From the IMG/VR virus record IMGVR_UViG_2901201504_000001, positions 1 through 64,000 of that record: a DNA stretch of 64,000 bases. One strand, 5' to 3'. Position numbers and translations under genes: made by a program. Positions 1,033 to 59,613 of this stretch are shown piece by piece; position 1 is the stretch's first letter; every line of letters starts with the position of its first letter. Under the pieces are notes generated by a model. It searched no databases. It saw nothing but the letters and a program-made list of their open reading frames with translations, and was not told the DNA's origin. The stretch comes from a virus. Its lineage: Duplodnaviria > Caudoviricetes.

Positions 1033-1083
1033 AATAGATATGTTACTATATCTTCAATTATAGCAAATATGGGGAGATATAGT

Positions 1084-25569: not shown

Positions 25570-26583
25570 CTAACCAAATATCTGATTCTTCTCTTCTTCA
25601 AAGTCACGAAGGTCATAATGTGCTATAGTAGTTGCTACATTTTCATGATGGGCAACATATTTTGAAACTAACTCTAATTTGACACCTTGTTCTAGGAGGT
25701 AAGTTACACATGAGGCTTTAAATAGATGGGGGTTAATACGTCTGCCTAAAATGTCAGAGAGAGTATTTGTACAGAAATAATCAGCCCATGAGGATGACAT
25801 TTGATTAATGATCCCGTTGCTTTTTGTTGTGAAAATATATTCATGGTCATAACCACGCTTTTCAAGCCACAACTTAACATAAGATAAAGCTTCACGATTA
25901 ATCATATAAGGTTCAACCTTACCATCTTCTCCTCGACCTTTCAAACGAATATTATGAGTATAAACAAAACTTGCTTCTTCAGAGAATGGATAGTTAACAA
26001 TTTCTGATTTGAATTGTTTGATTTCTGAACGTCTAGCTCCTACATTAAACGCAACAGCTAACCAAGCCATTCCTAAATAGTTTTGATCGTCTTCAAGAAC
26101 TTTCATCATTTCTTTATATTCATCATAAGTTACTTTTACTTTTTCATATACAGTGTTTTTAGGTATAGCTGGCAAACCTCTAGTGAAATTTCTGAATAAT
26201 TTATAGTCCTCATATCCGTCTTCACCAACAATAATATTTTCAATATAGTTACATAGACTTGATACGCAAGCTTTCTTTAAGTTCTGCCCACTCGAAGACA
26301 TTTTTCTATTATCTCGTAAATAGCTTATGTACCTTAAAAAGTCTCTTTTTGTAACCTTATGTAATGGTTTATTATTCATTGAATTGCAAATATACCATCC
26401 AAATTGTTTTAAAGCAGAAGTGTATTGTTTCTTTGTTTCAGGACTATGGTTTTGTACAGAAATAAATTCTTCCACAAGTTCTCGATATTCTGAGTTAACC
26501 TGTTTCCACATTTCATTAGTTATTTCAGGAAGCTTTCGTGCTCTATCCCTGAGCATGTTCATATTAATACTTTTTTCACTCAA
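25570..26583 (-). CDS. Tyrosine recombinase of the morphogenesis region (YomM-like)
   Basis: SAM-like N-domain, GARRSE, KG, PHLFK, HHEN..TTIAHY. Confidence 0.85.
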   Translation of the reverse strand: MSEKSINMNMLRDRARKLPEITNEMWKQVNSEYRELVEEFISVQNHSPETKKQYTSALKQFGWYICNSMNNKPLHKVTKRDFLRYISYLRDNRKMSSSGQNLKKACVSSLCNYIENIIVGEDGYEDYKLFRNFTRGLPAIPKNTVYEKVKVTYDEYKEMMKVLEDDQNYLGMAWLAVAFNVGARRSEIKQFKSEIVNYPFSEEASFVYTHNIRLKGRGEDGKVEPYMINREALSYVKLWLEKRGYDHEYIFTTKSNGIINQMSSSWADYFCTNTLSDILGRRINPHLFKASCVTYLLEQGVKLELVSKYVAHHENVATTIAHYDLRDFEEEKNQIFG

Positions 26584-45168: not shown

Positions 45169-47694
45169 CTAAACCGTTACAGACTTTTTAAATCGATACT
45201 CTCTAACCCTTTCTCTCGTTTGCTTTCTTTGAATTTCCTTCCAACAATGAGCACAATACTGACTTCTATTGTTAATCTTCTTTACACGCTTTCCACATTC
45301 ACTACACTGTATTGTATTCTTTAAGTTTTTTTGCAGGTTTTTAAGAATCACATCTCCAAAGGCTTCCCATAATGTTGTCTTATATTTACTTTTCTTTTCA
45401 ATATATAAGTATTTTATCAACATATCAGCAACTTGATTAATATTGCTATTTATTTCTAATAACTTATTTCTCAAATTATCATATATGTATATATTTGAGT
45501 CACTATGTTTAGATGATTCATGGTTTCTGAGTAATATATCTTTATTTCTATCGAATTCCTCATATGTCACTATGATTCTATCATCCACTTCTATGTCTTT
45601 ATCTAGAAAGAGTTTTTCTGGATTAAGAGTACCTGCAATATCTTCATATTTGATCCTTTTATTAGGAATAATTCTATTCAGTTTATTTACTGTACTATGA
45701 TTTATTTTAACGACATTTTTCTTTTTCTTATCTTTTGCGTAAACAAAGAAATGAGGAACTTTATCTTTTATATAATCTGAAATTTTTTCATCTACATGTT
45801 TCGGTCTAGTTGGCATAAACAATGTCTTAGCAAAATCAATAGTAAAGTTATTCTCCATACAAAGCCATTTGATAACATCTAGATTCACATTATCACTATT
45901 CCATATCTTAGTGATATTATTACTAATTTCTCCAATGTTGGCCTTATAAGCAAGAATCAAACTGTTATAGATATTTTCACTATTAATTTTCTGTGCTTCA
46001 GCTTTAGACATTTCATAATAAAGAGGAACTATGCCTTTCATGTTACGCTCTGCTACATTAATAAATGTCTCGTCTTGAATAACTAACGCTTTATCTCCAT
46101 CGTTATCGAATTGTAGCATCTTACTAATTGGATCAAGAACACTTGTGTAAATGCCATTTGTAATAAACCATTCAGTTTTATTTTCATCAATGACATTATT
46201 CTTAATCGCATGTTCACGATAGAGGTGAGGAGATCGTAATACATCTACTTTTCCTTCATGAAATAAATTACAGTAAATTTCATTATTATGTAGTAATCCT
46301 TTAGGTTCTTCAATGGCCATGAACAATTTCTCGCAAAATGCATATAAGTCAGGACATAAGAAAGTATACTTACCATTAATATTTAATTTACCTGCCCTTG
46401 CATCCCTTACCATGCTTTTTTTCTTATCTTTAATGGTTTGTTTTGCATGAGCATCATTCAATAGCTCAGGGTATATATATAATCCTCCTTGGAAATAGTT
46501 CTTATTTTTATTATGCTTTGTAGCACCTAATACACGTAACATTGTTTCTTTGTTACTACCTACAGAAAGAATATCATCTATTGTTGATGAGCTAATTTTT
46601 TCTAATTCTTCATCTGTAATATCTGTTAGAGTTTGCAACATTTGATAATTCAACATAGCATCATTGGAAGTATCTTCAACATTTAATTTAGCAGCTTGGC
46701 ATTTATGTTGCTTGAATCTACTTTTATAGTCATCCCAGTCCTCATAATATTTCCACATTTTAAATTGACTTTTAGTAAAAATAATCTGAATATCATCTTC
46801 AACAATATCCCATTCTTTATTATAGATATCGATCACTTTTGTTGAGGAATCGTCTAAAGATGAGAATTTTTTAAAGTCAAATGGTACTAACAAACCTTTA
46901 AGGAAGGGGAGTCTACACATAAAAGACTTTTTAGACTTAGAAGGCAGAATCATCCCACATCCGTCTGTATGTTCAATTTCAATATCCATAGTCTGTCTAG
47001 TTATCTCATATGTATCACGATTAATATAGTCAACTTCACTATAAACATCGGTAGCTAAATCAGGTACTACTATAGCTTTATCAATATTAAATCCTTTCCA
47101 TTCATTCGTTGCACTGTTGGTTAATGCTAGATAGCTTAAATATTTATTTACATTACTACCGCCCTTAGAATTGATTTCTTCCACAGATAAACCACATGTC
47201 AAAGAATCTTTATGTTTCAACCATACTGACTCTTTTATGAAAACACCTTTCTTTGTTCTAATTTGACCAGCAGAACTAGAGAAATAAACATAATGTTCTC
47301 CATTGTAATCAAAACCATCCGAAATTAAATCATTCAATACTTTATAGTGATAAGCTCTGATAGTAATAATGTCCATTGTGATTGTATTTTCTTTTGCTCC
47401 GATTGTTCTCGATAATGATGATTCAAAAATAGAAATTACATTGGAATCCTTAAGGTTGTCTTGGTTTAATCTACGGACATTCCTGTTCAGGTTGAATTCC
47501 TTTCTTAGATTTTTCTTCAATTCATTAACACGCTTATTAATTAATTTTATTTTTATCTTCTCTGACTTGTTTAATTTTTTCTTATGGATCAAGTATCTCA
47601 TCATTAAATTATGTATGAATGCTTCTTTTTTATTATAAAAAGCAGAAGTATCTACTGAGTATATGTAAACTTGTTTGTCCAATCCCTTAGCCAT
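45169..47694 (-). CDS. yonO: YonO-type single-subunit DNA-dependent RNA polymerase
   Basis: SSAGQIR, HTDGCG, RSPHL, catalytic FDNDGD; C-terminal CSEC..CAHC; heads the late operon. Confidence 0.92.
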   Translation of the reverse strand: MAKGLDKQVYIYSVDTSAFYNKKEAFIHNLMMRYLIHKKKLNKSEKIKIKLINKRVNELKKNLRKEFNLNRNVRRLNQDNLKDSNVISIFESSLSRTIGAKENTITMDIITIRAYHYKVLNDLISDGFDYNGEHYVYFSSSAGQIRTKKGVFIKESVWLKHKDSLTCGLSVEEINSKGGSNVNKYLSYLALTNSATNEWKGFNIDKAIVVPDLATDVYSEVDYINRDTYEITRQTMDIEIEHTDGCGMILPSKSKKSFMCRLPFLKGLLVPFDFKKFSSLDDSSTKVIDIYNKEWDIVEDDIQIIFTKSQFKMWKYYEDWDDYKSRFKQHKCQAAKLNVEDTSNDAMLNYQMLQTLTDITDEELEKISSSTIDDILSVGSNKETMLRVLGATKHNKNKNYFQGGLYIYPELLNDAHAKQTIKDKKKSMVRDARAGKLNINGKYTFLCPDLYAFCEKLFMAIEEPKGLLHNNEIYCNLFHEGKVDVLRSPHLYREHAIKNNVIDENKTEWFITNGIYTSVLDPISKMLQFDNDGDKALVIQDETFINVAERNMKGIVPLYYEMSKAEAQKINSENIYNSLILAYKANIGEISNNITKIWNSDNVNLDVIKWLCMENNFTIDFAKTLFMPTRPKHVDEKISDYIKDKVPHFFVYAKDKKKKNVVKINHSTVNKLNRIIPNKRIKYEDIAGTLNPEKLFLDKDIEVDDRIIVTYEEFDRNKDILLRNHESSKHSDSNIYIYDNLRNKLLEINSNINQVADMLIKYLYIEKKSKYKTTLWEAFGDVILKNLQKNLKNTIQCSECGKRVKKINNRSQYCAHCWKEIQRKQTRERVREYRFKKSVTV

Positions 47695-47763
47695 TAAATC
47701 CCTCACATTCGCTTTATTTCTAAAATTTCATTCTATTTATTTTTTTAGTTATTTAACTTTTAA

Positions 47764-47988
47764 TTAATATCCTCCAAGTAAATCCATCTTATGTTTTAAA
47801 TTACGACTAAATCTATTATGTATTAATCCATCTACTCTAACACAAGCATCATAAAATCTAATTTCTCGATTACTAGCCTCATTGTTTAATATTCTTTGAG
47901 ATAAGAATTCAATCACCTCATCATCTCTCCATCCACGTTTAATAGACTTGTACATACTCTTCACCTCCTGTATATAAGTATTCGACAT
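47764..47988 (-). CDS. Hypothetical protein upstream of yonO
   Basis: RBS AAAGGAG; upstream TTTACA-18-TATGAT promoter. Confidence 0.6.
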   Translation of the reverse strand: MSNTYIQEVKSMYKSIKRGWRDDEVIEFLSQRILNNEASNREIRFYDACVRVDGLIHNRFSRNLKHKMDLLGGY

Positions 47989-48101
47989 TTATATTTCATC
48001 TCCTTTATTAATATTAATTTATTTAACTTTTATTTATCATAACGGACATATCCTAATTTTGTAAAGTGTAATTTTAATTTTTCTGAAAAAAATTTACAAA
48101 G

Positions 48102-48131
48102 TCATAAGTACAAGCAGATATTACATAATCT
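48102..48131 (+). promoter_or_regulatory. Putative sigmaE promoter of wHTH-tubulin operon
   Basis: TCATAAG-N15-CATAATCT versus B. subtilis sigmaE consensus TCATATT-~15-CATACGAT. Confidence 0.55.
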
Positions 48132-48180
48132 TTGAATATCTTTAAGAATCTACAAAGATTTTTAAAAATCTATACAGATA
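48111..48180. repeat. 10-bp periodic direct repeats (tubC-like iterons)
   Basis: AATCTTTGAA/TATCTTTAAG/AATCTACAAA/GATTTTTAAA/AATCTATACA in tandem just before the RBS. Confidence 0.65.
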
Positions 48181-48193
48181 CAGGAGGATTTTC

Positions 48194-48475
48194 ATGGATT
48201 ACTTTGTTCACACTGTACTCAAATCTAGTCAAGAAGAGTTAGTATTGCTCAATGTATTAAATGAACATCAGGCTTACAATACTTATACATTTCTAACAAA
48301 GCAACAAATCAAAGACCAATCACATTTATCCGAATCAATTGTAAGAAAAACTCTGCTCATATTAGAAAGACTTCAATTTATTAATTCAATTTGCACGAAC
48401 AAAACAAAAGGGTACTATCTTACGAATCATGGTTTATTAGCAATTGAAAAAATCCTAGAGGGAGTGAATGAATAA
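48194..48475 (+). CDS. Winged-helix DNA-binding protein (TubR-like adaptor)
   Basis: LTKQQI..LSESIVRKTLLILERLQFI..YYLTNHG wHTH; stop/start coupled to tubulin. Confidence 0.75.
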   Translation: MDYFVHTVLKSSQEELVLLNVLNEHQAYNTYTFLTKQQIKDQSHLSESIVRKTLLILERLQFINSICTNKTKGYYLTNHGLLAIEKILEGVNE

Positions 48476-49581
48476 TGATAGGTGTAATTGGTTTAGGTCA
48501 AGCTGGAGGAAATGTTGCAAACTTATTTGCCGAAAGAGGAATTCAAACTGCTGCAATTAACTATTCATCCAAAGACCTAGAGACTTGTAATCACATAGAA
48601 AACAAATTAAAACTCATTGGATCAGAAGGAGTTGGTAAACAAAGAGAGGAAGCAATTCGACTATTTCACAACAATTATGAATCAGCTTTAATATTCATTA
48701 AAGAGCATTTCTCACAACCTTCTGTTGAATTAATCTTTATTGTTTTTAGTGCGGCAGGAGGGAGTGGAAGTGGTATAGCTTCAATATTATCCGAGCTACT
48801 ACTCAACGAAATGCAGGAAAAAACTTTCATAATTTGCCCCATCATTCCTACTGTCTCAGAGTGCATTACAGCGCAATTAAACACTCTAGATACATTGACT
48901 AGCCTAAGTGAATTAGAAGCCTGTATCATTCCATTGGACAACGAGAAGGGGATGTCTAAGGGCGCTAAAGACAAATCTTACCACTTTATAAATCAGACGT
49001 TTGTAGACACTATTTTAACGATAGCTGACTACACTAATATGCATTCAATCACAGGAAACTTTGATGCAAGGGACTTGCGTACATTGTTGTCTACAACTGG
49101 ATTCTGCTCAATTGGACAATGTGACATTTCACATCTAAAGAATGAAGACATATCCGTAAATATCGAAGTTGTATCTAAAAAAGTAAGAACATCGCATTTT
49201 GAGTCAATCTTCACATCTCCTTCATTGGAACAAATAGTACGATCAGGCTTAATATTTGATGGGCAAGAATCATTAATGTATTGTGTCGATCTTGATAAAA
49301 TTCACAATCAATTTCCCAATCAACCTTTGGATGTTTTTGAAGGCTATTATACAGAAGAAAAAGGGAGAGTAATATCTATTTACTGTGGTTTAAAATTTAA
49401 CAGTACAAGATTAAATCAGATTGAAAAATTAGCAACTGAACGAATAGAATCTTTCCAAAACACTCATCAAAGCACATCTATATCCATAAAAAGACCAACT
49501 CTTAAAAGCCCAATTATGTCATCTAAACCTAAGAAATCGCTATCTGATATTCTAAATAAACACAAGAAAACTAATATATAA
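48475..49581 (+). CDS. Tubulin/FtsZ-superfamily GTPase (TubZ-like)
   Basis: GLGQAGGN, G.G (GVGK), signature AAGGSGSG, DNE, T7 loop GNFDARD; basic C-terminal tail. Confidence 0.9.
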   Translation: MIGVIGLGQAGGNVANLFAERGIQTAAINYSSKDLETCNHIENKLKLIGSEGVGKQREEAIRLFHNNYESALIFIKEHFSQPSVELIFIVFSAAGGSGSGIASILSELLLNEMQEKTFIICPIIPTVSECITAQLNTLDTLTSLSELEACIIPLDNEKGMSKGAKDKSYHFINQTFVDTILTIADYTNMHSITGNFDARDLRTLLSTTGFCSIGQCDISHLKNEDISVNIEVVSKKVRTSHFESIFTSPSLEQIVRSGLIFDGQESLMYCVDLDKIHNQFPNQPLDVFEGYYTEEKGRVISIYCGLKFNSTRLNQIEKLATERIESFQNTHQSTSISIKRPTLKSPIMSSKPKKSLSDILNKHKKTNI

Positions 49582-49590
49582 AAATAGTAA

Positions 49591-49732
49591 ATTATCATTA
49601 CCCGTCAGTTTACCTGATACTTTATTTTCATTACCTAATCGTTACCCATTATCATTACCAGTTGATTTTACAATATCGGTAATTACCCAAACAGCAGGTA
49701 ATGGAAAATCGGTAAGTATAAAACGTTGGTAA
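49591..49732. repeat. TTACC/GGTAA repeat array
   Basis: TTACC at 49598, 49610, 49631, 49642, 49655, 49683; GGTAA at 49678, 49697, 49711, 49728; ATTATCATTACC occurs twice. Confidence 0.7.
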
Positions 49733-49780
49733 TAAACCTTTAGATTTAATTTTCACATATAATTCTTCCTTAAATAAAAT

Positions 49781-49841
49781 GAAAAAAGAAGTTTGAGTTT
49801 CAGTTGTAAATTTTCTTCTGAATTCAAGCTTCTTTTTTTTG
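49781..49841. terminator. Long imperfect hairpin, probable bidirectional terminator
   Basis: AAAAAAGAAGTTTGAGTTTTCAG...CTGAATTCAAGCTTCTTTTTTTT. Confidence 0.6.
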
Positions 49842-49845
49842 AAAT

Positions 49846-50022
49846 TTATTCAATGATTCCTACTTCATGTAAAAATGTTAAAAGTTCATGTAATCTTTTT
49901 CTGCTCATTCCTGTTTTTTCTATTACATAATCAGAGGTGAATTCCAACTTCTCTTCAAACTTAGGAGGCTCGTATGTACCCCATGAACCAATTGACATAT
50001 GTCCACGTACATTTTCACTCAT
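49846..50022 (-). CDS. Small protein with HTH-like C-terminus (58 aa, not in ORF track)
   Basis: RBS GGGAGG; MSENVRG...VIEKTGMSRKRLHELLTFLHEVGIIE. Confidence 0.55.
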   Translation of the reverse strand: MSENVRGHMSIGSWGTYEPPKFEEKLEFTSDYVIEKTGMSRKRLHELLTFLHEVGIIE

Positions 50023-50102
50023 TTACCTTTGCCTCCCTTGTTCGTTCTATCTAAAAAATCATTTACTGCATCTCTTGGATCTTGTTTGTAAATAAATGAC
50101 AT
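50019..50102 (-). CDS. 27-aa peptide coupled to downstream HTH-like gene
   Basis: RBS GGAG; MSFIYKQDPRDAVNDFLDRTNKGGKGK; ATGA overlap. Confidence 0.35.
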   Translation of the reverse strand: MSFIYKQDPRDAVNDFLDRTNKGGKGK

Positions 50103-50165
50103 GTTTTCCAACTCCGTTTATAATTATCTTAATAGTAGTCTTACCTCAAGGAGTTGACGTTATAC

Positions 50166-50597
50166 ATGAAAGAAAAAGTTACTTTAACCGTAGATATAAC
50201 TATGAAAAACTATGTAAATATTAAAAATCTCATTGGTTATTGTAAGTACAACAACTTGATTATCAGCGAAAATTTACCTACCACTGACGAAGAAATAATT
50301 AATGCTGCACTATTTTCTTACTTTGAGAAGATTGAAACAATCGTAAGATATTATAATGTGGATAAATCAGCATTGAATTTAGAAGAAGGAACAAAAATTA
50401 AAAATAGGATAAAAGAAATATTAAAGATGACTGGTATGAAACAGAAAGAATTATCTGAATTAACAGGTATTGAAACAGCTACATTATCTGCAATGTTATC
50501 TAACAGAAACCAACCATCAATCGAAAACTTTTTGCGTATATGGACTGTGTTAGGGTGTCCACCAATTGAAGAAGTATTCTACAGAGAGAAGGAGTGA
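50166..50597 (+). CDS. XRE-family transcriptional regulator (C-terminal HTH)
   Basis: KNRIKEIL..MKQKELSELTGIETATLS..NQPS. Confidence 0.85.
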   Translation: MKEKVTLTVDITMKNYVNIKNLIGYCKYNNLIISENLPTTDEEIINAALFSYFEKIETIVRYYNVDKSALNLEEGTKIKNRIKEILKMTGMKQKELSELTGIETATLSAMLSNRNQPSIENFLRIWTVLGCPPIEEVFYREKE

Positions 50598-50640
50598 TCC
50601 TTCTTTTTTGTTGTTTGTAGATTTTTTTAAAATTTATTAT

Positions 50641-50670
50641 ACATAGTACAATCAACGTCATCCATATACT
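50641..50670 (+). promoter_or_regulatory. Putative sigmaE promoter of membrane protein/FtsK operon
   Basis: ACATAGT-N15-CATATACT, same spacing as the promoter at 48102. Confidence 0.5.
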
Positions 50671-50696
50671 TAATCAAACAACCGGAGGTGATTAAC

Positions 50697-50879
50697 ATGA
50701 TGTTTGCAACTGTATTAGCTTTGAAAATTGGAGCATTAGGAAGTGTGGGTGTAGGAATTGCAAGTGCATTAAAATTATTTCATAACTACGAATGGAAACA
50801 ATCATCTAAGAAAGGTGTGAAATATGATGACAACTATGACAGTGAATCTTTGCGTGAAAAAGCAAGACGAATTAATTAA
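50697..50879 (+). CDS. Small membrane protein
   Basis: RBS GGAGGTG; N-terminal hydrophobic helix. Confidence 0.65.
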   Translation: MMFATVLALKIGALGSVGVGIASALKLFHNYEWKQSSKKGVKYDDNYDSESLREKARRIN

Positions 50880-51393
50880 ATACAATGATTTTAATCAATT
50901 TGTTTTTCGACAAACTGAGGAGAGTACCAATGTAAATTTTCATTTACCAACAATAAAGGAGGTGAAAAGTTTACCAAAGAAAACGAAAAAGAAATTTCAC
51001 AAAATTGCAGTATCATTTCTAGCAACTGTAGCAACTTACATGGTATCCGCATCAAAATCAATGGCAAGTACTGTACTGCCATCAACATCAAACGACATCA
51101 TAAACATTCCGGCAACAGCACAGGGACTTCCTCCAGAACTTATGCAGATATTCGGAACAGGTCTAGTAATATTAGTAGCTGTAGCAGTTCTACTTTGCAT
51201 GGCAATGTTGATGGGAGCAGGCCTATTAAGAGCAATGAGGAAGAAAAAAGAAGCGAGCGAATGGACAGGAGACATCATAAAAGGATTAGTTCAAGTACTT
51301 TTAGCACCACCAATCATATTTTTAATCTTCTATATAGCAACAATCCTGTTCACCGGTTCAAGTTGGTTCATCAATCCTTTCGTAATACGCTAA
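50824..51393 (+). CDS. TrbC/VirB2-pilin-like membrane protein
   Basis: Signal-like segment ending SMA, then two TMs separated by RKKKEASEWTGDIIKG, a pilin-like topology. Confidence 0.5.
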   Translation: MMTTMTVNLCVKKQDELIKYNDFNQFVFRQTEESTNVNFHLPTIKEVKSLPKKTKKKFHKIAVSFLATVATYMVSASKSMASTVLPSTSNDIINIPATAQGLPPELMQIFGTGLVILVAVAVLLCMAMLMGAGLLRAMRKKKEASEWTGDIIKGLVQVLLAPPIIFLIFYIATILFTGSSWFINPFVIR

Positions 51394-52496
51394 AAAAGGT
51401 AGCTATCCCATTTGCAGTATTATCTACATCCTCACTATTATTTACATTAAAAGCTTCTGCTGAATCTTTTTGGGAAAGAGGGGATATCACAAAACATGGT
51501 TTATTTAATAAAGAGAATATCTTAGAACGTGGCGGATCAATTCAGGAATTTAAAGATGTTACTGAAAAGCTAGGTATGATTCTCGATAAAATCATTAAAG
51601 GAATGGATTGGATTGCATACGCTTGGTATCATCCTGATGAAATGTCTATTAAACTCCTAACATCTATCTACGAAGTACTAACTAAAGTCGTACTAACTAC
51701 CCCTACATTCATTTTCAATAATACTTTCATTCAAAGCATTTCATTAAAATTCTCATTAATTAGCATTGTTATAGTCACTGCTTTAACTATCGTTGAATCA
51801 ATTATGCAAATTACAAGACAAAAACATACGAAAATCAAAACAATTATAAAACGCTATTTTGGAGTGGTTACTGTTACTGGTTTTGCTCCATTCTTATTTG
51901 AAAAAGGCTTTGACTTTATTAACAAATTAACTTCATCAATTATTTCATTAGGTGGAGATTTCAGCAGAGCTACTACCACTGTGCAAACTATGGGAATGGC
52001 AAATCTGGATGTGTTAATTATGTTTGCATTTGATATTACTCTTTTAGCTATGTTAATTCCTATAATGCTTCAAAACGGTAGACGATGGTGGGATTTAATG
52101 TGTTTATCTGCAACTGCACCAATAGCCGGAGTCGCATTTGTATTTGATCGATACAGACATTACTTTGATTCCTGGTGGAGTTCGGTAAAACGTTTATCAA
52201 TGATTCAATTAGTGTATGGTGTGTTTATCACTTTACTAGGTGTATTTATTTTTGCCACTAGAGATATGGTCACAGGTTGGGAATTGATTATCAAATTACT
52301 TATAGCAGCAGGAGGAATGTGGAGATTATTAAATCCACCAAGAATAGTTCTGAATTTAACACAAGGAGACGGTAAAGATGTATTCAACATGTATGACGAC
52401 TATAAATCTGGAGCTAAAAAAGTCATTGATACTGTTACATTCAAAAACTTTAGACCTGTCAATTTCATCAAAAGTAAATTAAAAAAGAATAAATAG
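51363..52496 (+). CDS. Polytopic membrane protein, TrbL/VirB6-like (start uncertain)
   Basis: Signal peptide ending KASA, five to six TMs, RWWDL..ATAPIA..YFDSWWSS pattern as in VirB6/TrbL. Confidence 0.55.
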   Translation: MVHQSFRNTLKKVAIPFAVLSTSSLLFTLKASAESFWERGDITKHGLFNKENILERGGSIQEFKDVTEKLGMILDKIIKGMDWIAYAWYHPDEMSIKLLTSIYEVLTKVVLTTPTFIFNNTFIQSISLKFSLISIVIVTALTIVESIMQITRQKHTKIKTIIKRYFGVVTVTGFAPFLFEKGFDFINKLTSSIISLGGDFSRATTTVQTMGMANLDVLIMFAFDITLLAMLIPIMLQNGRRWWDLMCLSATAPIAGVAFVFDRYRHYFDSWWSSVKRLSMIQLVYGVFITLLGVFIFATRDMVTGWELIIKLLIAAGGMWRLLNPPRIVLNLTQGDGKDVFNMYDDYKSGAKKVIDTVTFKNFRPVNFIKSKLKKNK

Positions 52497-52508
52497 TGAG
52501 GTGTTAGC

Positions 52509-52622
52509 ATGATAACCTTATTAGTTTGCAATACAATAATGCTCATCATAAATTCATTTGTCTTATATGTAAACAGTGACTTAATAAGCAAGGTGATGGA
52601 AGATGATAAGAATAGGTACTAA
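52509..52622 (+). CDS. 37-aa single-TM peptide (not in ORF track)
   Basis: RBS GAGGTG; MITLLVCNTIMLIINSFVLYV...; overlaps FtsK start. Confidence 0.45.
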   Translation: MITLLVCNTIMLIINSFVLYVNSDLISKVMEDDKNRY

Positions 52623-54843
52623 ACCAAATAAAACCATTCAGAAAAACAGCAATTTTACGTATAAATTAGATGTATTTCATGACAAATTGATACAAAAGTA
52701 TATGGATTCCGACCATATTTCAACTAACATATACGGTTTTGAAATACTATCAAATTCTGAAATATACACTTTTACACCTACCTTAGATCGATTAGAATAC
52801 TCAATTGTAGAACAAGATTTATCCACTTATTTTAACTCAAATACTTTGCAATTATATGAAATACAAATGAAAAATCCTTTGTTTCTTCCTATATATAATA
52901 AATTCCAACAATCTCTCATAGAGCAAATATTCAATATCCAACAAAGCTATCCTGTTCTCATCCAAATCTTAATACAAAAAATAAATAAATGGAGAGATAA
53001 TGCAATCTCACAGTATGAAGAATTCTTGAAGGGGAATGATTATCCATCTGAAAATAGGATTCTTAGAAATACACAAAGCAAGATCATAAATGTGCTTAAT
53101 AAATTCGCTAACTTCCAAGTGAAAAGAAAACCGATTCAAGACGTAGAAGATAAAATTCTTAGTGATAACTTTAAGATTGAAATACGCTTTGCTATAGAAG
53201 ACAATGAGGGAGAATTTGAGTTAACAATTAATAAATTTCTAAAACAATATGATTACTATAATCAATTAGAGCTAGTCAAAATATATGATGTAGATAGTCA
53301 AATACAATTGATTAAAAATAGACAAATGAAGTCATATACACTTAATCAATTGTCCACTTCAGAAATTAATTCTCTCTTTTCATCTGATAAGTCAGATATT
53401 ACTCCTAAACAAGAAGTAATGATAACGTCCAATAGAAAAAGTCAACAAACAAGTAATCCTGAACAATATAATCATTTACTTGATGTGCTACCGAAATATG
53501 AAAAACAATCAAATGATATTGATAATGAAATAGTTGATAGATTGATACAAAGCTTCAAACGTACAAAAATAACGAACAAATTAATAAAAATAGGTGAGGT
53601 AGCAAGAGGAGCAACATTGCAAAAAGTTACTCTAAAAATCCCTAATGATATAGTCTATACGAACATTGAGAAGAATCTAAAGAATATACAGGCCACATTG
53701 GGTAATGATGCAATTAGTATGGAAATTAGCGATACTCCTGACTCTGTAGATTTCTATATTCCATGTAGTGAAAGAGAAGTAGTTTATTTACGAAATGTAT
53801 TAGAATCAGACGAATTTATTGAGCAAGTAACTGAATTAACTTTGCCATTAATATTAGGTGAAGATAGCATAGGTAAACCATTGCTTTCTGATTTAGCAGA
53901 GTTAAAGCATATTCTTATAGCAGGAGCAACTGGTAGTGGTAAATCAGTATTTCTTAATGCATTGATACTTACTATGATTATGTACAAAGAACCTGGGGAA
54001 TTAAAGCTGATACTTATTGATCCAAAGAAAGTAGAACTAGTGCCATTTAGTAAGTATCCTCAAGTTACCTTTGTAGACGATATGAATAAAGCAACAAATA
54101 CATTTGAGACATTAATCAATGAGATGAATAAACGTTACGATACTTTTGCAAGTAAAGGATGTAGGAATATTGCTCAATACAATTCTAAGTTAGACATAAA
54201 AGTACCATACTTAGTTTGTATTGTAGACGAATTATCAGATTTAATGGATACGCATGGTAATGAAATTGAATCACATATTATAAGATTAGGTCAGAAAGCT
54301 AGAGCAGCAGGTATACATTTAATATTATGTACACAGAAACCTTCAGTAGATGTTATTACAAGCAGGATAAAGAGTAATTTACCAAGCGCCATTAGCTTTA
54401 GATTGAAAGCACAGAGCGACTATAGAACTGTATTTGGTAAAGGTATTCCTTATCATCTATTAGGAAAAGGTGATGGAGTAGCGATGTTAGAAGGGAATAG
54501 TAAAGAGTTTATTAGGTTTCAATCACCTGTCATTGATCTTGATGACAATACAACCGTAGATATTATTGATAAGATAGCAGATACCTATGAAGGAATTCAA
54601 CATGAACCAATAAAAATTATTGAAACTGAAGAACCGATTGATAAACTAAAGCGTATTATAGCTAGTACAGGTGAGACTAGGATATCTGAATTACAAAAAG
54701 AGATGAAAATAAGGATTAATCTAGTCTCAGAATTAATGAAGCAGTTGGTTACCGAGGAATGGGTAATTAAAGAAGGAAAAGGATATAAGATAATTGTTAG
54801 TGAGAATGAGTTAGATAAATGGAGGGAAGTTGCTGAACAGTGA
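52603..54843 (+). CDS. FtsK/SpoIIIE-family DNA translocase lacking N-terminal TMs
   Basis: Alpha domain, HILIAGATGSGKS, IDPKKVEL, CIVDE, RAAGIHLILCTQKP, LLGKGD; C-terminal gamma-like wHTH (ISELQKEMKIRIN). Confidence 0.92.
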   Translation: MIRIGTKPNKTIQKNSNFTYKLDVFHDKLIQKYMDSDHISTNIYGFEILSNSEIYTFTPTLDRLEYSIVEQDLSTYFNSNTLQLYEIQMKNPLFLPIYNKFQQSLIEQIFNIQQSYPVLIQILIQKINKWRDNAISQYEEFLKGNDYPSENRILRNTQSKIINVLNKFANFQVKRKPIQDVEDKILSDNFKIEIRFAIEDNEGEFELTINKFLKQYDYYNQLELVKIYDVDSQIQLIKNRQMKSYTLNQLSTSEINSLFSSDKSDITPKQEVMITSNRKSQQTSNPEQYNHLLDVLPKYEKQSNDIDNEIVDRLIQSFKRTKITNKLIKIGEVARGATLQKVTLKIPNDIVYTNIEKNLKNIQATLGNDAISMEISDTPDSVDFYIPCSEREVVYLRNVLESDEFIEQVTELTLPLILGEDSIGKPLLSDLAELKHILIAGATGSGKSVFLNALILTMIMYKEPGELKLILIDPKKVELVPFSKYPQVTFVDDMNKATNTFETLINEMNKRYDTFASKGCRNIAQYNSKLDIKVPYLVCIVDELSDLMDTHGNEIESHIIRLGQKARAAGIHLILCTQKPSVDVITSRIKSNLPSAISFRLKAQSDYRTVFGKGIPYHLLGKGDGVAMLEGNSKEFIRFQSPVIDLDDNTTVDIIDKIADTYEGIQHEPIKIIETEEPIDKLKRIIASTGETRISELQKEMKIRINLVSELMKQLVTEEWVIKEGKGYKIIVSENELDKWREVAEQ

Positions 54844-54931
54844 CTTCTCTTATTTTTGTATAGTAGGTGTATATATGTGAAGGTGAAAAATTGGATTTAA
54901 AATAAGCCCCCTTATAAAGGAGGCTTTTCTA

Positions 54932-55627
54932 CTATCTATAAACTGATTTAGGAATATTTGCTTTTGGGTTTCCTACAGCATAAGGTGCTAATTCATATTC
55001 TTGATAAATCACACTTATTCCTGTATTAGTGAAAATGAAAGTTGTACCCTTATTTAGTTTTATGTCCTTAACAGTAATATCATCAAACATGATATCTTGT
55101 TTTTTGAGAAAATTATAGATATGTTGCTTTGTCTTTTGTGCCTTAGCTGGCTTAACTACATCTGGTATTGTAACTAGTTTACCAGTTTTGATGTTAAAGT
55201 TATATGATTGAACAAATCTACCGCCATGAACTCCTCCAGTGTACATATCAGTATAGACTAACACACTAATATAATTACTGTCTTGGTAAGCTAGTTTGAA
55301 TGTAGTTTTATAACGATACTGACATGAAAATGGAAATTCACTACAATATTCTTCATCATAATTCTCTTCCATTGAATTCATTAGTGCGTTATAACCATCA
55401 TAGTGTCCTTTTCCCACTTGACGAAAGAAGAGATTGATATTGTGTTGTATTTGAGTATTTTTAATTCCTGATAATTTAGGATAAGCAATGTTTTTGTTAC
55501 CTTTGTAATACACCGTTTCTGTCTTAATAGGATTAGAAGCTGCATTAGCCTGTATTACTGAAGTAGAAAATAGACCAATTGCAAATACTAACAGAATAAT
55601 AACTCTTAGAAATTTGATGTTCTTCAT
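54932..55627 (-). CDS. Secreted DUF4163/DUF3298 (RsiV/PdaC-like) protein
   Basis: Signal peptide ending ANA; IAYP..YTGGVHG..YNFN..YQEYELAPYAVG. Confidence 0.8.
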   Translation of the reverse strand: MKNIKFLRVIILLVFAIGLFSTSVIQANAASNPIKTETVYYKGNKNIAYPKLSGIKNTQIQHNINLFFRQVGKGHYDGYNALMNSMEENYDEEYCSEFPFSCQYRYKTTFKLAYQDSNYISVLVYTDMYTGGVHGGRFVQSYNFNIKTGKLVTIPDVVKPAKAQKTKQHIYNFLKKQDIMFDDITVKDIKLNKGTTFIFTNTGISVIYQEYELAPYAVGNPKANIPKSVYR

Positions 55628-56106
55628 TATGTATCCTCCTTTTTTATTATAAACTATTACAGTATATAGTAAAAATGTCCTAAATAAAAGATATATGTTT
55701 ATAAAAAATAGATTTATAAAGAAGAGTCTATCTATACTATGACTCGAAGCTGAAAATAACGACACTCGAACGATGGTGTATAAAGTGATAAAAATGTAGT
55801 GTTTATAAGAGATTTCGGTAGTTTAGGTGAGATTGAAAGGTGACTCGATAGGCTGAACTCGTAGAAACGTTGATGTACCAATGGTTTGAGCGTGTTTTTG
55901 GAGTGGAATTAGTGAAATTTTAGTGAGTTGAGTAGTGGAAAAGTCAATGTTTATAAGGGGTTTACGAGTCACTTTTCGAGTGTAATTTAGGTGAAAATGA
56001 GGTGATTTTAATTCTGAGTGAGATTATGGGAATAGGGTGATAAAATATAATTTAGTGATTAGGAAAATTATTGTGGTGTGGAAATGGAAGTGCTACGGCT
56101 CTATAC

Positions 56107-56120
56107 AGAACATATATTCC
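56107..56120. promoter_or_regulatory. Possible SOS box
   Basis: AGAACATATATTCC, one base from the box at 2983. Confidence 0.4.
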
Positions 56121-56639
56121 TATTTTAGATGTTTAATAACCCCCGGTAAACCCTTTATTTATAAGGAAAAACGTACATATAATTCTAATTATATGTAACT
56201 TTTAATATTTGGACATATAAATAGCTACATTACACAATTACATATCTTCAAAATAGATAACTAGGATATTTTCATGTATAAAATTTTAAAAAATTAATTC
56301 ATCATTCCAATTTTTACAGCGTTTATTTATATATTTTAGTCCCAGAATCGGCTATAACATAAAGCGGCAAGCCAAAGTATTATAATTATAAACTAAAAGT
56401 AAAGTAATACTAAACTTATCAAAACCAATAATAAATAGTATTATAAAGTTAATATTACTATTACACGTAGTTATCAAAACTACATATAAACTCATCACTT
56501 ATCTATCAATATCACATCCAACTATTCACCTTATCAAAATATACATCAATTGAAATTATAATATAGATAACCATTGTTAATTAAACTAATCAATAGTCAT
56601 AAACAAATTTATATATATTCCCATAAACTACTAACAACC

Positions 56640-56659
56640 TGTGGATAACATGTGTATAA
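56640..56659 (-). promoter_or_regulatory. Tandem DnaA boxes
   Basis: TGTGGATAA (=TTATCCACA) and TGTGTATAA (=TTATACACA). Confidence 0.55.
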
Positions 56660-56827
56660 CTTGTTTATATCATGTTAGTAAACTATAACCACACTACAAT
56701 ATAAACAAAAATAAAATAACGTAAAATACCAAAAATAACTATACCAAACTACTAATATATGGTATAATTGTATTATAAGTAAGGAGGTGAAAATAGTTGA
56801 ATTTATCATACGAAAGGAGGTGAAGAA

Positions 56828-56995
56828 GTGGAGTTAATGTTAGTATTGAGCCTTTTGCTTAACATACTAACTCTTATAGAAAAGTTACTCAACATACGAA
56901 AACTATACAACGACAACAAGAAAATAAACTACAAAGAGGATAAAGAAGAGCAAAAGGAAAAACCTTCTACACGCTGCGAACGTTATAGAAGGTGA
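56828..56995 (+). CDS. YonT-like type I toxin (55 aa, not in ORF track)
   Basis: RBS AAAGGAGGTG; MELMLVLSLLLNILTLIEKLLNIRK...RYRR has a TM, an LT.xEK motif and a charged tail as in YonT. Confidence 0.7.
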   Translation: MELMLVLSLLLNILTLIEKLLNIRKLYNDNKKINYKEDKEEQKEKPSTRCERYRR

Positions 56996-57050
56996 TGAAT
57001 AGTGTAGAAAGGGAACATAAGCTTCATGAACTTACATAAGTTCCCTTTCA
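56955..57050 (-). ncRNA. SR6-like antisense antitoxin RNA
   Basis: Minus-strand TTGCAT-18-TAGTAT (57056-57085), 5' hairpin GAAAGGGAAC..GTTCCCTTTC, terminator ACCTTCTA..TAGAAGGT-TTTT; overlaps toxin 3' end and the next RBS. Confidence 0.6.
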
Positions 57051-57277
57051 AATTAATACTAACATATTCCACAATAAATATGCAAATATTATCCAAATTA
57101 TCAAACCTTGTTTTAATAGTCTTTTCAATTGTCTACATTGTCACACGGATAAACTCTGACACAAATACAACATTTTATATAATTATGGATATACTCTTAG
57201 GTATAACGATCATTCTAGTAGTTTATACATCGTATCTACTGCATAAAGTTAACAAGCAGCGAAATAGTAAGCGTTAA
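57026..57277 (+). CDS. YoyJ-like two-TM protein
   Basis: Two TMs, basic tail, directly after the yonT-like gene. Confidence 0.55.
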   Translation: MNLHKFPFKLILTYSTINMQILSKLSNLVLIVFSIVYIVTRINSDTNTTFYIIMDILLGITIILVVYTSYLLHKVNKQRNSKR

Positions 57278-57499
57278 ACAACAAACGTGATTATGGGACG
57301 ATTATAGTCATTATGGTCGTTCCTTTTTCTTTAAACATTAATAAATAAAAGTTAATTAAATTAAAATAATAGTATACATCACTACCGAAGTATTGTATAA
57401 TTAATACATAAGATAAAGAGAGGAATTAATAAGCATTTAACTAAAATATCTCAATGTCTTACAATTAATACTAAATTAATTTAAAAGGAGTTAATTAAA

Positions 57500-57868
57500 A
57501 TGAAAAAACTTATCACATCTCTAACTATTCTTATTGTACTATCTGTTATTGCTATTACATACAACATTAATCAACCACAAGCTACTGTACAATTACAACA
57601 AAGTACTGGGCAAATCACAACAACTAAACAAGAAACACAATCTCAACCTATCACAGAGTCATACATCATCACTGAAGTAGTACAACATAACAATAAAGAT
57701 ACAGAATACTATGGTCAATCAACAACTGGAGATACAGGTATTTACTTCACTTCTGATTATATCAACTTAATTGATTCACTTGAAGAAGGCGATATAATAA
57801 CGGCACACTTTGAGAATGAATATGATGATAGCTTACTATATGTTCAGAAAGGAGATAATAAACATTAA
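57500..57868 (+). CDS. Membrane-anchored/secreted hypothetical protein
   Basis: Signal/TM N-terminus; RBS AAAAGGAG; upstream sigmaA-like promoter. Confidence 0.65.
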   Translation: MKKLITSLTILIVLSVIAITYNINQPQATVQLQQSTGQITTTKQETQSQPITESYIITEVVQHNNKDTEYYGQSTTGDTGIYFTSDYINLIDSLEEGDIITAHFENEYDDSLLYVQKGDNKH

Positions 57869-57939
57869 ATAAATTAATATAAAATGAAACTTTTTAGTAT
57901 GTTCATACGTCTAATATATAGAAAGGAGGTGAATCATAT

Positions 57940-58122
57940 ATGTTAAGTGGTAAAGACTTTTTCTTTTGTTACAACTATAAACTAAATAAACATCTTCAAA
58001 CAAAAGGCTTTAAATATATTACTCATGCTATCAATATTGATACGAATAAAAAATACTTTATGTATCATAAAACAAATCAACTTAGTGCTGCAATCAATGA
58101 ATATATAAATAATAAACCATGA
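57940..58122 (+). CDS. Small phage protein (DUF5659-like)
   Basis: FFFCYN..L..KGFKYIT.A...T.K.YFMY pattern; strong RBS. Confidence 0.6.
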   Translation: MLSGKDFFFCYNYKLNKHLQTKGFKYITHAINIDTNKKYFMYHKTNQLSAAINEYINNKP

Positions 58123-58134
58123 CAAAGGAGTATA

Positions 58135-59613
58135 ATGCTAATGATCAAATATAATGCGAACACTAAATATTCAGAAGTAATCAGCACCGAAGATATTAAG
58201 AAGTGGAAAGGTAATGTAATATTAGAAGGAGGAACGGCAACCGGTAAAACATATTTCATATTGAATGTGTTAGCTGCATATTGCAAAGATACAAATAAAA
58301 AAATACTCTTCTTATGTAATAGGAATTCTCTACAAGATGAATTAAGGAAAGAAATTATAAAACTTGGATTAACGGACATTATTACTGTACTTACATATCA
58401 AAAAATAGAGCATTCAGTCAAAAATAATGAAGAATTACTATTAAACCATGACTATCTTGTATGTGACGAATTCCATCATGTAAATGAAATATACAATGTT
58501 TATACTGATTTAAGTTATGATTGGATCATTAATCATCCAGGAACTAAAATATTCATAAGTGCTACATGTCACTACATATTTAATATGTTAGTTAATAAAA
58601 ATATTGTACCAAGTGAGCAACGCTATTACATACCAAAAGATTATTCATATGTAGATAATCTATATTTCTATTCAAAAAATAAGGATATAACAGAAATCAT
58701 TAACGATAAATTATTTAATACAAATGATAAGATTATATATTTCTCTAGTAATCTAGAAAGAGCAATTGAAATATATAAATGTTTCAAAGAACAATCTTCT
58801 TTCTATTCCTCTAAACATAGTAAAAAAGGAGCTAAATATATTACTGAAAACTGCATCCAGAATGAAACGTTTAATAGTAGATTACTAGTTACTACAAAAG
58901 CACTTGACGTTGGAATTACATTAAAAGATAAATCAATTAAACATGTAATAACAGATATGTTCGATATTGATACGCTGATACAATGTATAGGCCGTAAACG
59001 TATCATTGATGAAAACGATTCATGTAATTTTTATATTAAGAATCATAGCTCAAACAGTATGAAAGGAAATAAAAGTAGGTTAATAAGAATTAAACAACCA
59101 ATCAAGGTACTAATTAAAGATAAAGAACTATTTTTCGATACATATGTAAAAGATAGAAAGTTTCATAATAATTACATATATAAGGATGAAGAAGGTAACT
59201 ATACATACAATCATATTGCATACAAAAGATTAGTTACTCAGTTACTTGATATAGATGATATGGAAGGATGGTCTAATAATTACAATAAGACTAAAAAAGG
59301 TTTTAAAGGCTTCCTATTAGAAAGGTTAGGTGATACCATGACAAATATTATTGATATGGATGAAATGAAGCAAGTAGAAGAGTTAAATAATCTAGATAGT
59401 TATATTAATTCTATTATAGGTAAACCACTACTCAAAGATCAGAGAGAAGAACTTTTTCAAAAAATATCGTTAAAGGATTCTAGAGGAAGATTACAAAAAA
59501 CATTAGGTACAATAAACGGTTATTTAATAAATAATTTCAATGTTAATATTCAAACAAAAACTATAAATGTTGAAGGTAAGAGAAAGACTGCATGGATATT
59601 ATCTGATTTATAG
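58135..59613 (+). CDS. SF2 DExH helicase-like protein (YonV-like)
   Basis: GGTATGKT, VCDEFH, ISAT, TKALDVGI, QCIGRKR. Confidence 0.85.
   Translation: MLMIKYNANTKYSEVISTEDIKKWKGNVILEGGTATGKTYFILNVLAAYCKDTNKKILFLCNRNSLQDELRKEIIKLGLTDIITVLTYQKIEHSVKNNEELLLNHDYLVCDEFHHVNEIYNVYTDLSYDWIINHPGTKIFISATCHYIFNMLVNKNIVPSEQRYYIPKDYSYVDNLYFYSKNKDITEIINDKLFNTNDKIIYFSSNLERAIEIYKCFKEQSSFYSSKHSKKGAKYITENCIQNETFNSRLLVTTKALDVGITLKDKSIKHVITDMFDIDTLIQCIGRKRIIDENDSCNFYIKNHSSNSMKGNKSRLIRIKQPIKVLIKDKELFFDTYVKDRKFHNNYIYKDEEGNYTYNHIAYKRLVTQLLDIDDMEGWSNNYNKTKKGFKGFLLERLGDTMTNIIDMDEMKQVEELNNLDSYINSIIGKPLLKDQREELFQKISLKDSRGRLQKTLGTINGYLINNFNVNIQTKTINVEGKRKTAWILSDL

Follow-up and report, generated by a model that had tools for sequence, protein, structure and literature searches.

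Here we describe a block of five genes, g1 to g5, at positions 50697-54843 (+ strand) of a 64,000-nucleotide stretch of viral DNA (Duplodnaviria; Caudoviricetes), hereafter the window. The window covers positions 1-64,000 of the IMG/VR provirus record IMGVR_UViG_2901201504_000001, which is 137,119 bp long and rated complete (the 137-kb record). The sequence comes from a large, temperate, tailed phage that is a provirus of a spore-forming bacillus. Homology marks the block as a relaxase-free variant, with an FtsK motor, of the "DNA translocation operon" (orfs 200-207) of 0305phi8-36, a lytic phage of Bacillus thuringiensis (Pathria et al. 2012, PMC3357382). Its kind is already known from that report (PMC3357382), although little studied, and is not unique to the window. 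We propose that g1-g5 may form a membrane DNA-translocation machine of type-IV-secretion ancestry, a reading to which we give an even chance. The new observation is that, in all loci examined, no stop codon interrupts the frame of the VirB6-like gene where it crosses the pilin-like gene.

The five genes are as follows:
50697-50879, + strand: g1, a 60-aa peptide with a single transmembrane segment (residues 3-21) and a charged tail (DUF7394 2.9e-7; phrog_3796)
50824-51393, + strand: g2, a 189-aa predicted VirB2/TrbC-pilin-like protein (phrog_3528 1e-31)
51261-52496, + strand (open reading frame 51195-52496, overlapping g2): g3, a TrbL/VirB6-like polytopic membrane protein (phrog_3750 6.7e-72)
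52509-52622, + strand: g4, a 37-aa micro-protein with a single transmembrane segment (GAGGTG 6 nt before the ATG)
52603-54843, + strand: g5, a 746-aa FtsK/SpoIIIE-family ATPase without transmembrane segments (Pfam FtsK_SpoIIIE PF01580 2e-47, residues 396-582)

These genes form one tight unit behind a regulator of the XRE family and probably constitute one transcription unit. A sequence-only reading of the window had described tightly overlapped small transmembrane, pilin-like, VirB6-like, 37-aa transmembrane and FtsK genes, and all of them are present on the + strand. It had also described the operon as lacking a relaxase, VirB4 and a hydrolase, and the annotation of the operon genes bears this out. 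The ATG of g1 at 50697 has GGAGGT 7 nt on its 5' side, whereas the listed open reading frame begins at GTG 50688. The overlap of g4 and g5 is 20 nt. Of 25 loci screened, 9 have a micro-protein frame like g4 at the equivalent place and 12 leave no room for one; the annotated counterparts of g4 are Bcp1_209 of phage Bcp1 and gp202 of 0305phi8-36.

The operon of 0305phi8-36 contains a relaxase (orf200), a coupling ATPase lacking transmembrane segments (orf201), a VirB6 homolog (orf203) and an MreB-like protein (orf207), and Pathria et al. proposed a role in DNA translocation and in cell-to-cell propagation in biofilms (PMC3357382). Both loci have, in the same order, an actin- or tubulin-type partition gene, small proteins, a pilin-like protein, a VirB6-like protein, a micro-protein and an ATPase without transmembrane segments. 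Gp204 matches g2 (1.2e-10), gp203 matches g3 (2.6e-21), and the 39-aa gp202 has the place and size of g4. The N-terminus of gp201 is homologous to the N-domain of g5 (hhalign 96.7%, E 3.4e-10, and 98.4%, E 5.1e-15). However, the motor of gp201 is not FtsK-like, and a phmmer comparison of g5 with gp201 gives no match. The published account reports AAA_10 in gp201, whereas the Pfam scan made here returns nothing at 0.01. The two loci also differ in the relaxase gp200 (Replic_Relax 6e-5), which lies beside the ATPase in 0305phi8-36; no gp200 homolog was found in the 137-kb record by tblastn or in any related FtsK-type locus compared. The window variant, in turn, has the XRE regulator upstream and a C-terminal winged helix on the ATPase. 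The homology of gp204, gp203 and the gp201 N-domain, together with the different motor and the absent relaxase, is our reason for calling the block a variant of that operon.

The ATPase g5 scores 162 bits with PF01580 against a cut-off of 24 and matches phrog_3551 at 1e-190. A Kyte-Doolittle scan finds zero hydrophobic segments, so the multi-span N-terminal membrane domain of FtsK is absent. An AlphaFold model built with an alignment of 64 full-length relatives (predicted local distance difference test score, pLDDT, 91) is divided into an N-domain (residues 12-262), a disordered linker (263-284), a motor (286-660) and a winged helix (678-745). The hydrophobic-segment scan and these domain limits confirm the earlier description of g5 as an FtsK lacking N-terminal transmembrane segments, with a soluble N-domain of ~290 aa and a winged helix-turn-helix. 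The domains are encoded at the following positions:
52636-53388, + strand: N-domain, residues 12-262, an alpha/beta fold and proposed docking domain (separate model, pLDDT 92)
53458-54582, + strand: FtsK alpha/beta motor, residues 286-660 (Walker A AGATGSGKS, Walker B VDE)
54634-54837, + strand: C-terminal winged helix, residues 678-745, at the position of FtsK gamma (AlphaFold model)

Both sequence and fold identify the motor as a genuine FtsK alpha/beta module. Among PDB sequences g5 matches FtsK at 8e-58, the pCW3 coupling protein TcpA at 1e-18 and EssC/EccC at 4e-16. In Foldseek the motor matches FtsK (2ius/6t8o) with E ~1e-33, template-modelling (TM) scores of 0.82-0.88 and 31-32% identity; TM is 0.65-0.68 with TcpA and 0.27-0.43 with EssC/EccC. 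All of the family-invariant residues G446, K447, E543, R511, R567 and Q578 are retained.

The N-domain is specific to these phage proteins. When 21 members were compared with Pfam and PDB sequences nothing credible was returned, and a word-indexed search with g5 residues 1-330 returned the query alone; the relatives came from an exhaustive search. Among viral models the N-domain matches those of Bacillus phage ATPases, namely gp156 and gp155 of phage G, proteins of JL and Slash, and an 802-aa protein. By fold, the likeness to PDB entries is weak, and TrwK/VirB4 of plasmid R388 accounts for all of the 11 best rows shown (E 0.009-0.09, TMq 0.29-0.40). It is plausible that the membrane anchor of g5 is supplied by neighbouring genes, as the sequence-only reading suggested, because the N-domain is homologous to that of gp201, which has no transmembrane segments and for which Pathria et al. 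argued the same (PMC3357382).

The winged helix is less specific. In the window copy MarR scores 6e-4; FtsK_gamma PF09397 gives 0.0057, its 16.8 bits lying below the cut-off of 30.6. Across the family MarR matches 16/21 members and FtsK_gamma 5/21. The best solved match is the winged helix-turn-helix of an MntR-type repressor (7e-5). A specifically gamma identity of this domain is not clearly supported, as PF09397 falls below its cut-off and MarR/MntR-type models score equally well or better.

The membrane proteins resemble parts of a type IV secretion system (T4SS). By sequence, g3 belongs to a family related to TrbL/VirB6. Ninety homologs of g3 were detected, two of which carry the NCBI name "TrbL family", and 10 of the 48 that were aligned (31-63% identical to g3) match Pfam TrbL_4, at best with 9e-10. 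All named neighbours among the Atlas clusters listed for g3 are TrbL_3 or TrbL_4 (scores 0.89-0.93). The VirB6-like assignment made from the sequence alone is therefore sustained by the homologs and by these neighbours. The protein has at least three strong hydrophobic segments and one N-terminal segment.

The layout of g2, taken from the alignment of homologs, is that of a VirB2/TrbC pilin precursor, with a long leader, a predicted peptidase site, two helices and a basic loop. A conserved N-terminal part of ~45 aa and a Lys-rich stretch are followed by a signal-like segment ending in SKSMA and two hydrophobic helices. Across the family the segment ends in SxSMA with A81 invariant, and GLPPEL precedes the first transmembrane helix; the helices are joined by the highly conserved loop RKKKEAxEWTxDIIKG. 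The TrbC model matches 2/33 homologs (best 3.6e-5), CagC also 2/33, and neither matches the window copy. The g2 homolog gp204 scores 0.00097 with T4SS_pilin, below the cut-off. The description of g2 as pilin-like thus holds for the leader, the SxSMA site, the two helices and the TrbC matches, but its support from the models is weak.

The start of g3 is uncertain: ATG 51261, TTG 51195, TTG 51363 and frameshift entry from g2 are the candidates. The first transmembrane segment of g3 (KKVAIPFAVL...) begins exactly at the stop of g2, and between these two points the g3 frame contains no ATG, GTG or TTG. Upstream, three features lie within g2:
50919-51393, + strand: stop-free stretch of the g3 frame across g2, 158 codons (-1 relative to g2)
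50958-50965, + strand: internal Shine-Dalgarno (SD)-like site GGAGGTGA within g2, conserved in 21/21 loci
50976-50979, + strand: candidate -1 slip site CCA_AAG, 14 nt after the SD-like site

The same frame is free of stops for 145-165 codons upstream in 21/21 other loci, including Bcp1, SIOphi and plasmids, and for 150 codons upstream of the VirB6-like gene of 0305phi8-36. In further genomes open frames of 468-532 aa surround g3 matches of ~290-380 positions. (Loci with the open -1 frame are also labelled L001, L002, L006, L007, L009-L037 and L041.) Within the last 145 codons of g2 in 21 loci, a T, which would create a -1 stop, precedes only 3 of 647 codons starting with AA, AG or GA. The same context is found in 1824/5191 such codons of g5 and in 75/302 of the first part of g2; for the window alone the counts are 0/28 in g2 and 120/265 in g5. 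Synonymous shuffles of g2 reach the observed open length in 4/5000 cases for the window and in 0-626/5000 for the other loci (mostly <100), and the +1 frame of g2 has 19-35 stops. The depletion of this T context, the shuffles and the stops in the +1 frame together establish that the open -1 frame is not a matter of composition.

In 21/21 loci the last stop of the -1 frame precedes the SD-like site GGAGG(TGA) by 26-57 nt. Although the genome is A+T-rich, the site is written in G-rich codons for (K/E)EV. In the other loci too it is followed by a Lys codon with an A before it (A_AAG or A_AAA), at a spacing of 5-29 nt that is mostly 14 or 17. The g3 frame has no ATG, GTG or TTG between 50919 and 51195. 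The simplest reading of a conserved stop-free frame that has an SD-like site and no start codon is -1 frameshifting, and we consider that a g2-g3 fusion is probably produced as well, by SD-stimulated -1 ribosomal frameshifting directly downstream of the internal SD-like site. Precedents for SD-stimulated -1 frameshifting are dnaX and the cdd gene of B. subtilis. The frameshift would join the conserved N-terminal part of g2 to g3 through a poorly conserved linker of ~140 aa. Two other explanations were rejected. An internal start of g3 after the SD-like site finds no ATG, GTG or TTG and, by eye in the loci printed, no suitably spaced near-cognate codon. Transcriptional slippage, or a slippery run at the g2 stop, would call for runs that are not conserved. 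We found no published title or abstract describing a frameshift in VirB6/TrbL genes. The open frame, kept from SPbeta-like prophages to 0305phi8-36, stands out as a clean candidate for a new case of programmed frameshifting in a pair of secretion-system genes.

The block is widespread. The related loci comprise 22 viral loci from IMG/VR, 8 prophage genome loci (Bacillus, Metabacillus, Sporosarcina, Cytobacillus, Heyndrickxia and relatives) and loci of Bacillus cereus-group megaplasmids. The order of the helix-turn-helix (HTH) gene, g1, g2, g3, (g4) and g5 is seen in the 22 viral and 8 prophage loci. In 20/22 viral and 8/8 genome loci g3 is followed by g5, both viral misses being contig ends. 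In viral loci L014 (8159-10000) and L015 (8129-9373) g3 and g5 are split by 1.2-1.8 kb with a small HTH gene on the opposite strand. Dozens of divergent loci share this gene order, which puts the arrangement well outside what chance would produce. Megablast of positions 48000-56000 against phages and plasmids gave zero matches. By tblastn against phage records, coverage of at least 80% was reached for g5 in 160 of 373 matching records and for g3 in 160 of 162, all at <60% identity. In a phylum-wide genome sample relatives of g3 occur in 1 of 401 genomes, namely the genome on which the sample was centred, and in a family sample in 9 of 269. No published title or abstract was found that describes the FtsK-type block with its membrane partners.

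Two of the phage records were inspected, Bcp1 and SIOphi, and both belong to Herelleviridae/Bastillevirinae. Bcp1_206-210 have the same order and overlaps, and a ParM-like gene and a sigma-F/G-type factor come before them; in SIOphi the gene order is again the same, with an M23 peptidase gene in front. Bastille-like phages carry a SpoIIIE homolog and are described as strictly virulent (PMC4528723). The block is also found on 11 megaplasmids of the B. cereus group (188-364 kb), behind the same HTH gene. A gene for an M23 peptidase of ~190 aa (PF01551 1e-24 to 5e-29) lies just upstream of the HTH gene or of the block in 19 of 35 related loci. Partition genes adjoin the block as well, TubRZ in the window, a ParM-like gene in Bcp1 and the MreB-like gp207 in 0305phi8-36.

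On this basis we suggest how the machine might work. Hexamers of g5 would dock, by their gp201-type N-domain, on a membrane complex of g2 and g3 (with g1 and g4). The winged helix would select the double-stranded DNA (dsDNA) of the element and load the motor on it. The FtsK motor would then pump dsDNA, with no nicking, through or along the VirB6-like channel across the septal or cell membrane. The likeliest destination would be the forespore, the sister or a neighbour cell, and a large genome could in this way spread or persist without a virion. Pumping without nicking fits the absence of a relaxase from all FtsK-type loci compared, in contrast to its presence beside the non-FtsK motor of 0305phi8-36. 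We infer movement of dsDNA across a septum or membrane as the function of the block. Crossing of a septum is favoured over classical conjugation because the block is carried by large replicons of endospore-forming Bacillaceae, has partition genes as neighbours and is kept by virulent phages; the sporulation-type sigma factor of Bcp1 and the peptidoglycan peptidase beside the block of relatives point the same way. A more specific version holds that the single-stranded DNA ATPase and relaxase of a T4SS-derived channel were replaced by an FtsK pump in large phages, temperate and virulent, and in megaplasmids of spore-forming Bacillaceae, that whole dsDNA genomes cross the septum free of virions to reach the forespore or a neighbouring cell, and that the conserved SD-stimulated -1 fusion of g2 and g3 is part of the system. 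Taken with all of these parts, it is rather unlikely.

Several observations weigh against a DNA-translocation machine of this kind. Pathria et al. found that deletion of orfs 200-207 caused no laboratory growth defect in 0305phi8-36 (PMC3357382). The 137-kb record shows only a purine-rich coding bias, with no 7- or 8-mer found to be skewed or over-represented in a way that might direct the motor, and the repeats in 47700-58200 are short two-copy families with no array. Residue 579 of g5 (54337-54339, in TQKPS) is Lys, while the relatives have Arg in 46/64, Lys in 8 and Tyr in 6. The winged helix sits at the gamma position yet is not specifically an FtsK gamma. The likeness of the N-domain fold to VirB4 is weak, and hhalign of the N-domain profile with the 400-aa N-terminus of one Gram-positive VirB4-like protein gives a probability of 0.06%, although the use of a single sequence makes this a weak test. 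The resemblance of g2 to pilins is weak as well, Atlas pilin clusters scoring just 0.83-0.84, and the window copy of g3 has no Pfam match at 0.01. Unlike most relatives, the window block has no M23 gene beside it. The case for a forespore or neighbour-cell destination is made from host range and neighbouring genes, and that for the frameshift from sequence statistics.

The nearest alternative is that the block is a true module for conjugation or mobilisation, in which a prophage or plasmid is moved as dsDNA in the manner of TraB and g2 and g3 form the mating channel. It has in its favour the T4SS-like parts, an FtsK-type motor with a winged helix of DNA-binding type, the presence of the block on large plasmids and the propagation by translocation proposed by Pathria et al. 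(PMC3357382). In addition, an FtsK-like protein of plasmid pBtic360 was taken as a hint of self-transfer (PMC6199540). However, the other parts of a transfer system are not seen. Profiles of the relaxase families PF03432, PF02486, PF01076, PF08751 and PF13814 were searched across the whole 137,119-bp record and matched nothing, a result that leaves room for other relaxase types; VirB4 (PF03135) and VirD4 (PF02534) gave no match either. The search of the rest of the prophage for mobilisation and VirB4 genes, which the sequence-only reading had named as a check, thus returned no relaxase, VirB4 or VirD4. PF12846 and PF01580 match solely g5 in the record, PF12846 with 22 bits, below its cut-off. 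There is no adhesin, and no VirB8-like gene was seen in the operon, where alone it was looked for.

The comparison with TraB is no more favourable to conjugation. The TraB model NF041214 scores 57 bits against a cut-off of 800, and clt-like repeats were not found. The idea of a split SpoIIIE/TraB-like dsDNA pump therefore keeps its FtsK motor lacking transmembrane segments and loses membership of TraB. Every one of the 13 plasmids that has a g3 match is typed non-mobilizable. The block is retained in about 160 phage records, the inspected ones belonging to Herelleviridae, a group described as strictly virulent (PMC4528723). Retention by virulent phages makes a role in conjugation doubtful and counts against the earlier "transfer" label; we regard a conjugation module as unlikely.

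Slightly less likely again is a role in segregation with no transport of DNA through a membrane. Here a replicon-specific FtsK/SftA-like pump, tethered by the membrane proteins at the division or sporulation septum, would clear trapped copies of the large element or activate dimer resolution together with TubZ or ParM. Bacillus does have a soluble FtsK paralog, SftA. Chromosomal FtsK motors are the closest solved relatives of g5, partition genes are always near the block in the three loci named above, and the element has a tyrosine recombinase at 25570-26583. The TrbL/VirB6-like channel protein, the pilin-like protein and the M23 peptidase of the relatives are nonetheless left unexplained, as is the homology to the relaxase-bearing operon of 0305phi8-36. 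Lytic phages, moreover, would scarcely need dimer resolution at septa.

An FtsK/EssC-like ATPase might instead serve protein secretion or remodelling of the envelope (effector export like that of a type VII secretion system (T7SS) or T4SS, lysis control or superinfection exclusion). EssC and EccC are FtsK-family ATPases, g5 has secondary matches to them (TIGR03928 1e-30, besides the PDB match above), and several of the small membrane proteins have the size of T7SS accessory parts. The motor is far nearer to FtsK than to EssC both in sequence and in fold, g5 has a single ATPase domain with a winged helix at the gamma position, and a WXG100-like substrate gene is absent from the unit, which makes this very improbable. 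The weakest alternative, a module for anti-phage defence or counter-defence, draws on domain-level matches of g5 to the PADLOC models SspH (8.6e-53), mad8 and HerA and can be dismissed as hardly credible, because the ATPase domain alone is matched, g1-g4 match no defence model, and virulent phages carry the block in their own replication and segregation region (PMC4528723).

If the block does carry phage or plasmid dsDNA across septa, it would provide a route of phage spread or of carriage into spores that is independent of the virion. This would bear on how virulent Bacillus phages survive sporulation of the host and on how very large plasmids typed "non-mobilizable" are moved.

The neighbours of the block in the window are the following:
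45169-47706, - strand: an 845-aa protein (phrog_8308 1e-295, DNDGD motif)
48194-48475, + strand: a TubR-like small winged-helix protein, partition neighbour, directly before the tubulin-like gene
48475-49581, + strand: a TubZ/PhuZ-like tubulin GTPase, partition neighbour (Pfam Tubulin 1.4e-13; PHROG tubulin PhuZ 2.1e-8)
50154-50597, + strand: an XRE-family HTH protein, upstream partner (Pfam HTH_26/HTH_3 ~1e-8, residues 85-145)
50583-50608, + strand: a terminator-like hairpin at the boundary of regulator and cassette
54822-54851, + strand: a terminator-like hairpin at the end of the unit
54932-55765, - strand: a convergent gene for an envelope protein (PdaC 2e-12, DUF3298 6e-10, N-terminal hydrophobic segment)

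The XRE homolog is immediately upstream of the cassette in 13/22 viral loci, 8/8 genome loci and both megaplasmid loci inspected. Homologs of the pair TubR-like/TubZ are upstream in 6/22 viral and 3/8 genome loci; the name TubR for the smaller product is our assumption. Between TubZ and the HTH gene ~570 nt (49582-50153) have no convincing gene. This is the place of the 190-aa M23 peptidase gene in most relatives, and tblastn found no remnant of it. The sole M23 domain of the element (18338-18703) is enclosed in a 3080-aa open reading frame at 14117-23359 (-), presumably a tape-measure or tail lysin protein.

The 137-kb record has 30% G+C and carries phage genes for terminase, portal, capsid and tail. 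It has two recombinases, a large serine integrase at 1069-2658 (+) and the tyrosine recombinase noted above, which is on the - strand. The 845-aa protein, kept upstream of the cassette in 7/8 genome loci, is one that we take to be YonO-like, after the single-subunit RNA polymerase YonO of SPbeta. With the integrase and the phage genes, this protein is why we call the element SPbeta-like, a label that we assume and that no tool returned. The overlap of g1 and g2 is 56 nt (50824-50879) in different frames. SPbeta-like loci conserve both readings of it, the tail of g1 as ...ESLREKA... and the start of g2 as M..TVNLCVK.P, and there is no such overlap in the Herelleviridae loci.

Apart from the operon of 0305phi8-36, the block can be set beside four known systems. 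The archaeal Ced/Ted systems import DNA with small pilin-like proteins, a polytopic VirB6-like protein and one ATPase of the FtsK/HerA/VirB4 superfamily. Set against this general description of Ced/Ted, the block resembles such a minimal set, and several of the nearest Atlas clusters of g3 are archaeal TrbL_3; the ATPase clade and the direction of import differ. The TraB/clt system of Streptomyces shares an FtsK-like motor with a winged helix and a logic that needs no relaxase. However, g5 lies far below the cut-off of the TraB model and no cluster of clt-type 8-bp repeats was found. TraB has its own membrane segment, and we know of no TraB system with VirB6- or pilin-like partners.

Conjugative T4SSs of Gram-positive bacteria include Con of ICEBs1 and Tcp of pCW3, the latter with the FtsK-like coupling protein TcpA. 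They share with the block a VirB6/TrbL-like protein, small membrane proteins and an ATPase of the FtsK superfamily, and TcpA is the second-best solved relative of g5. They also have a cell-wall hydrolase, as do relatives of the block, although not beside the window copy. In contrast to them, the 137-kb element has no VirB4, relaxase or VirD4 among the families searched, and the block is borne by phages, Herelleviridae included. Chromosomal FtsK/SpoIIIE shares with g5 the alpha/beta motor, the Walker motifs and a winged helix at the gamma position. It differs in its N-terminal membrane domain, in place of which g5 has a phage-specific N-domain and a gene set among T4SS-like membrane proteins. 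If an FtsK dsDNA motor here drives T4SS membrane parts with no relaxase involved, the block would link two systems of DNA transport that have been treated as separate.

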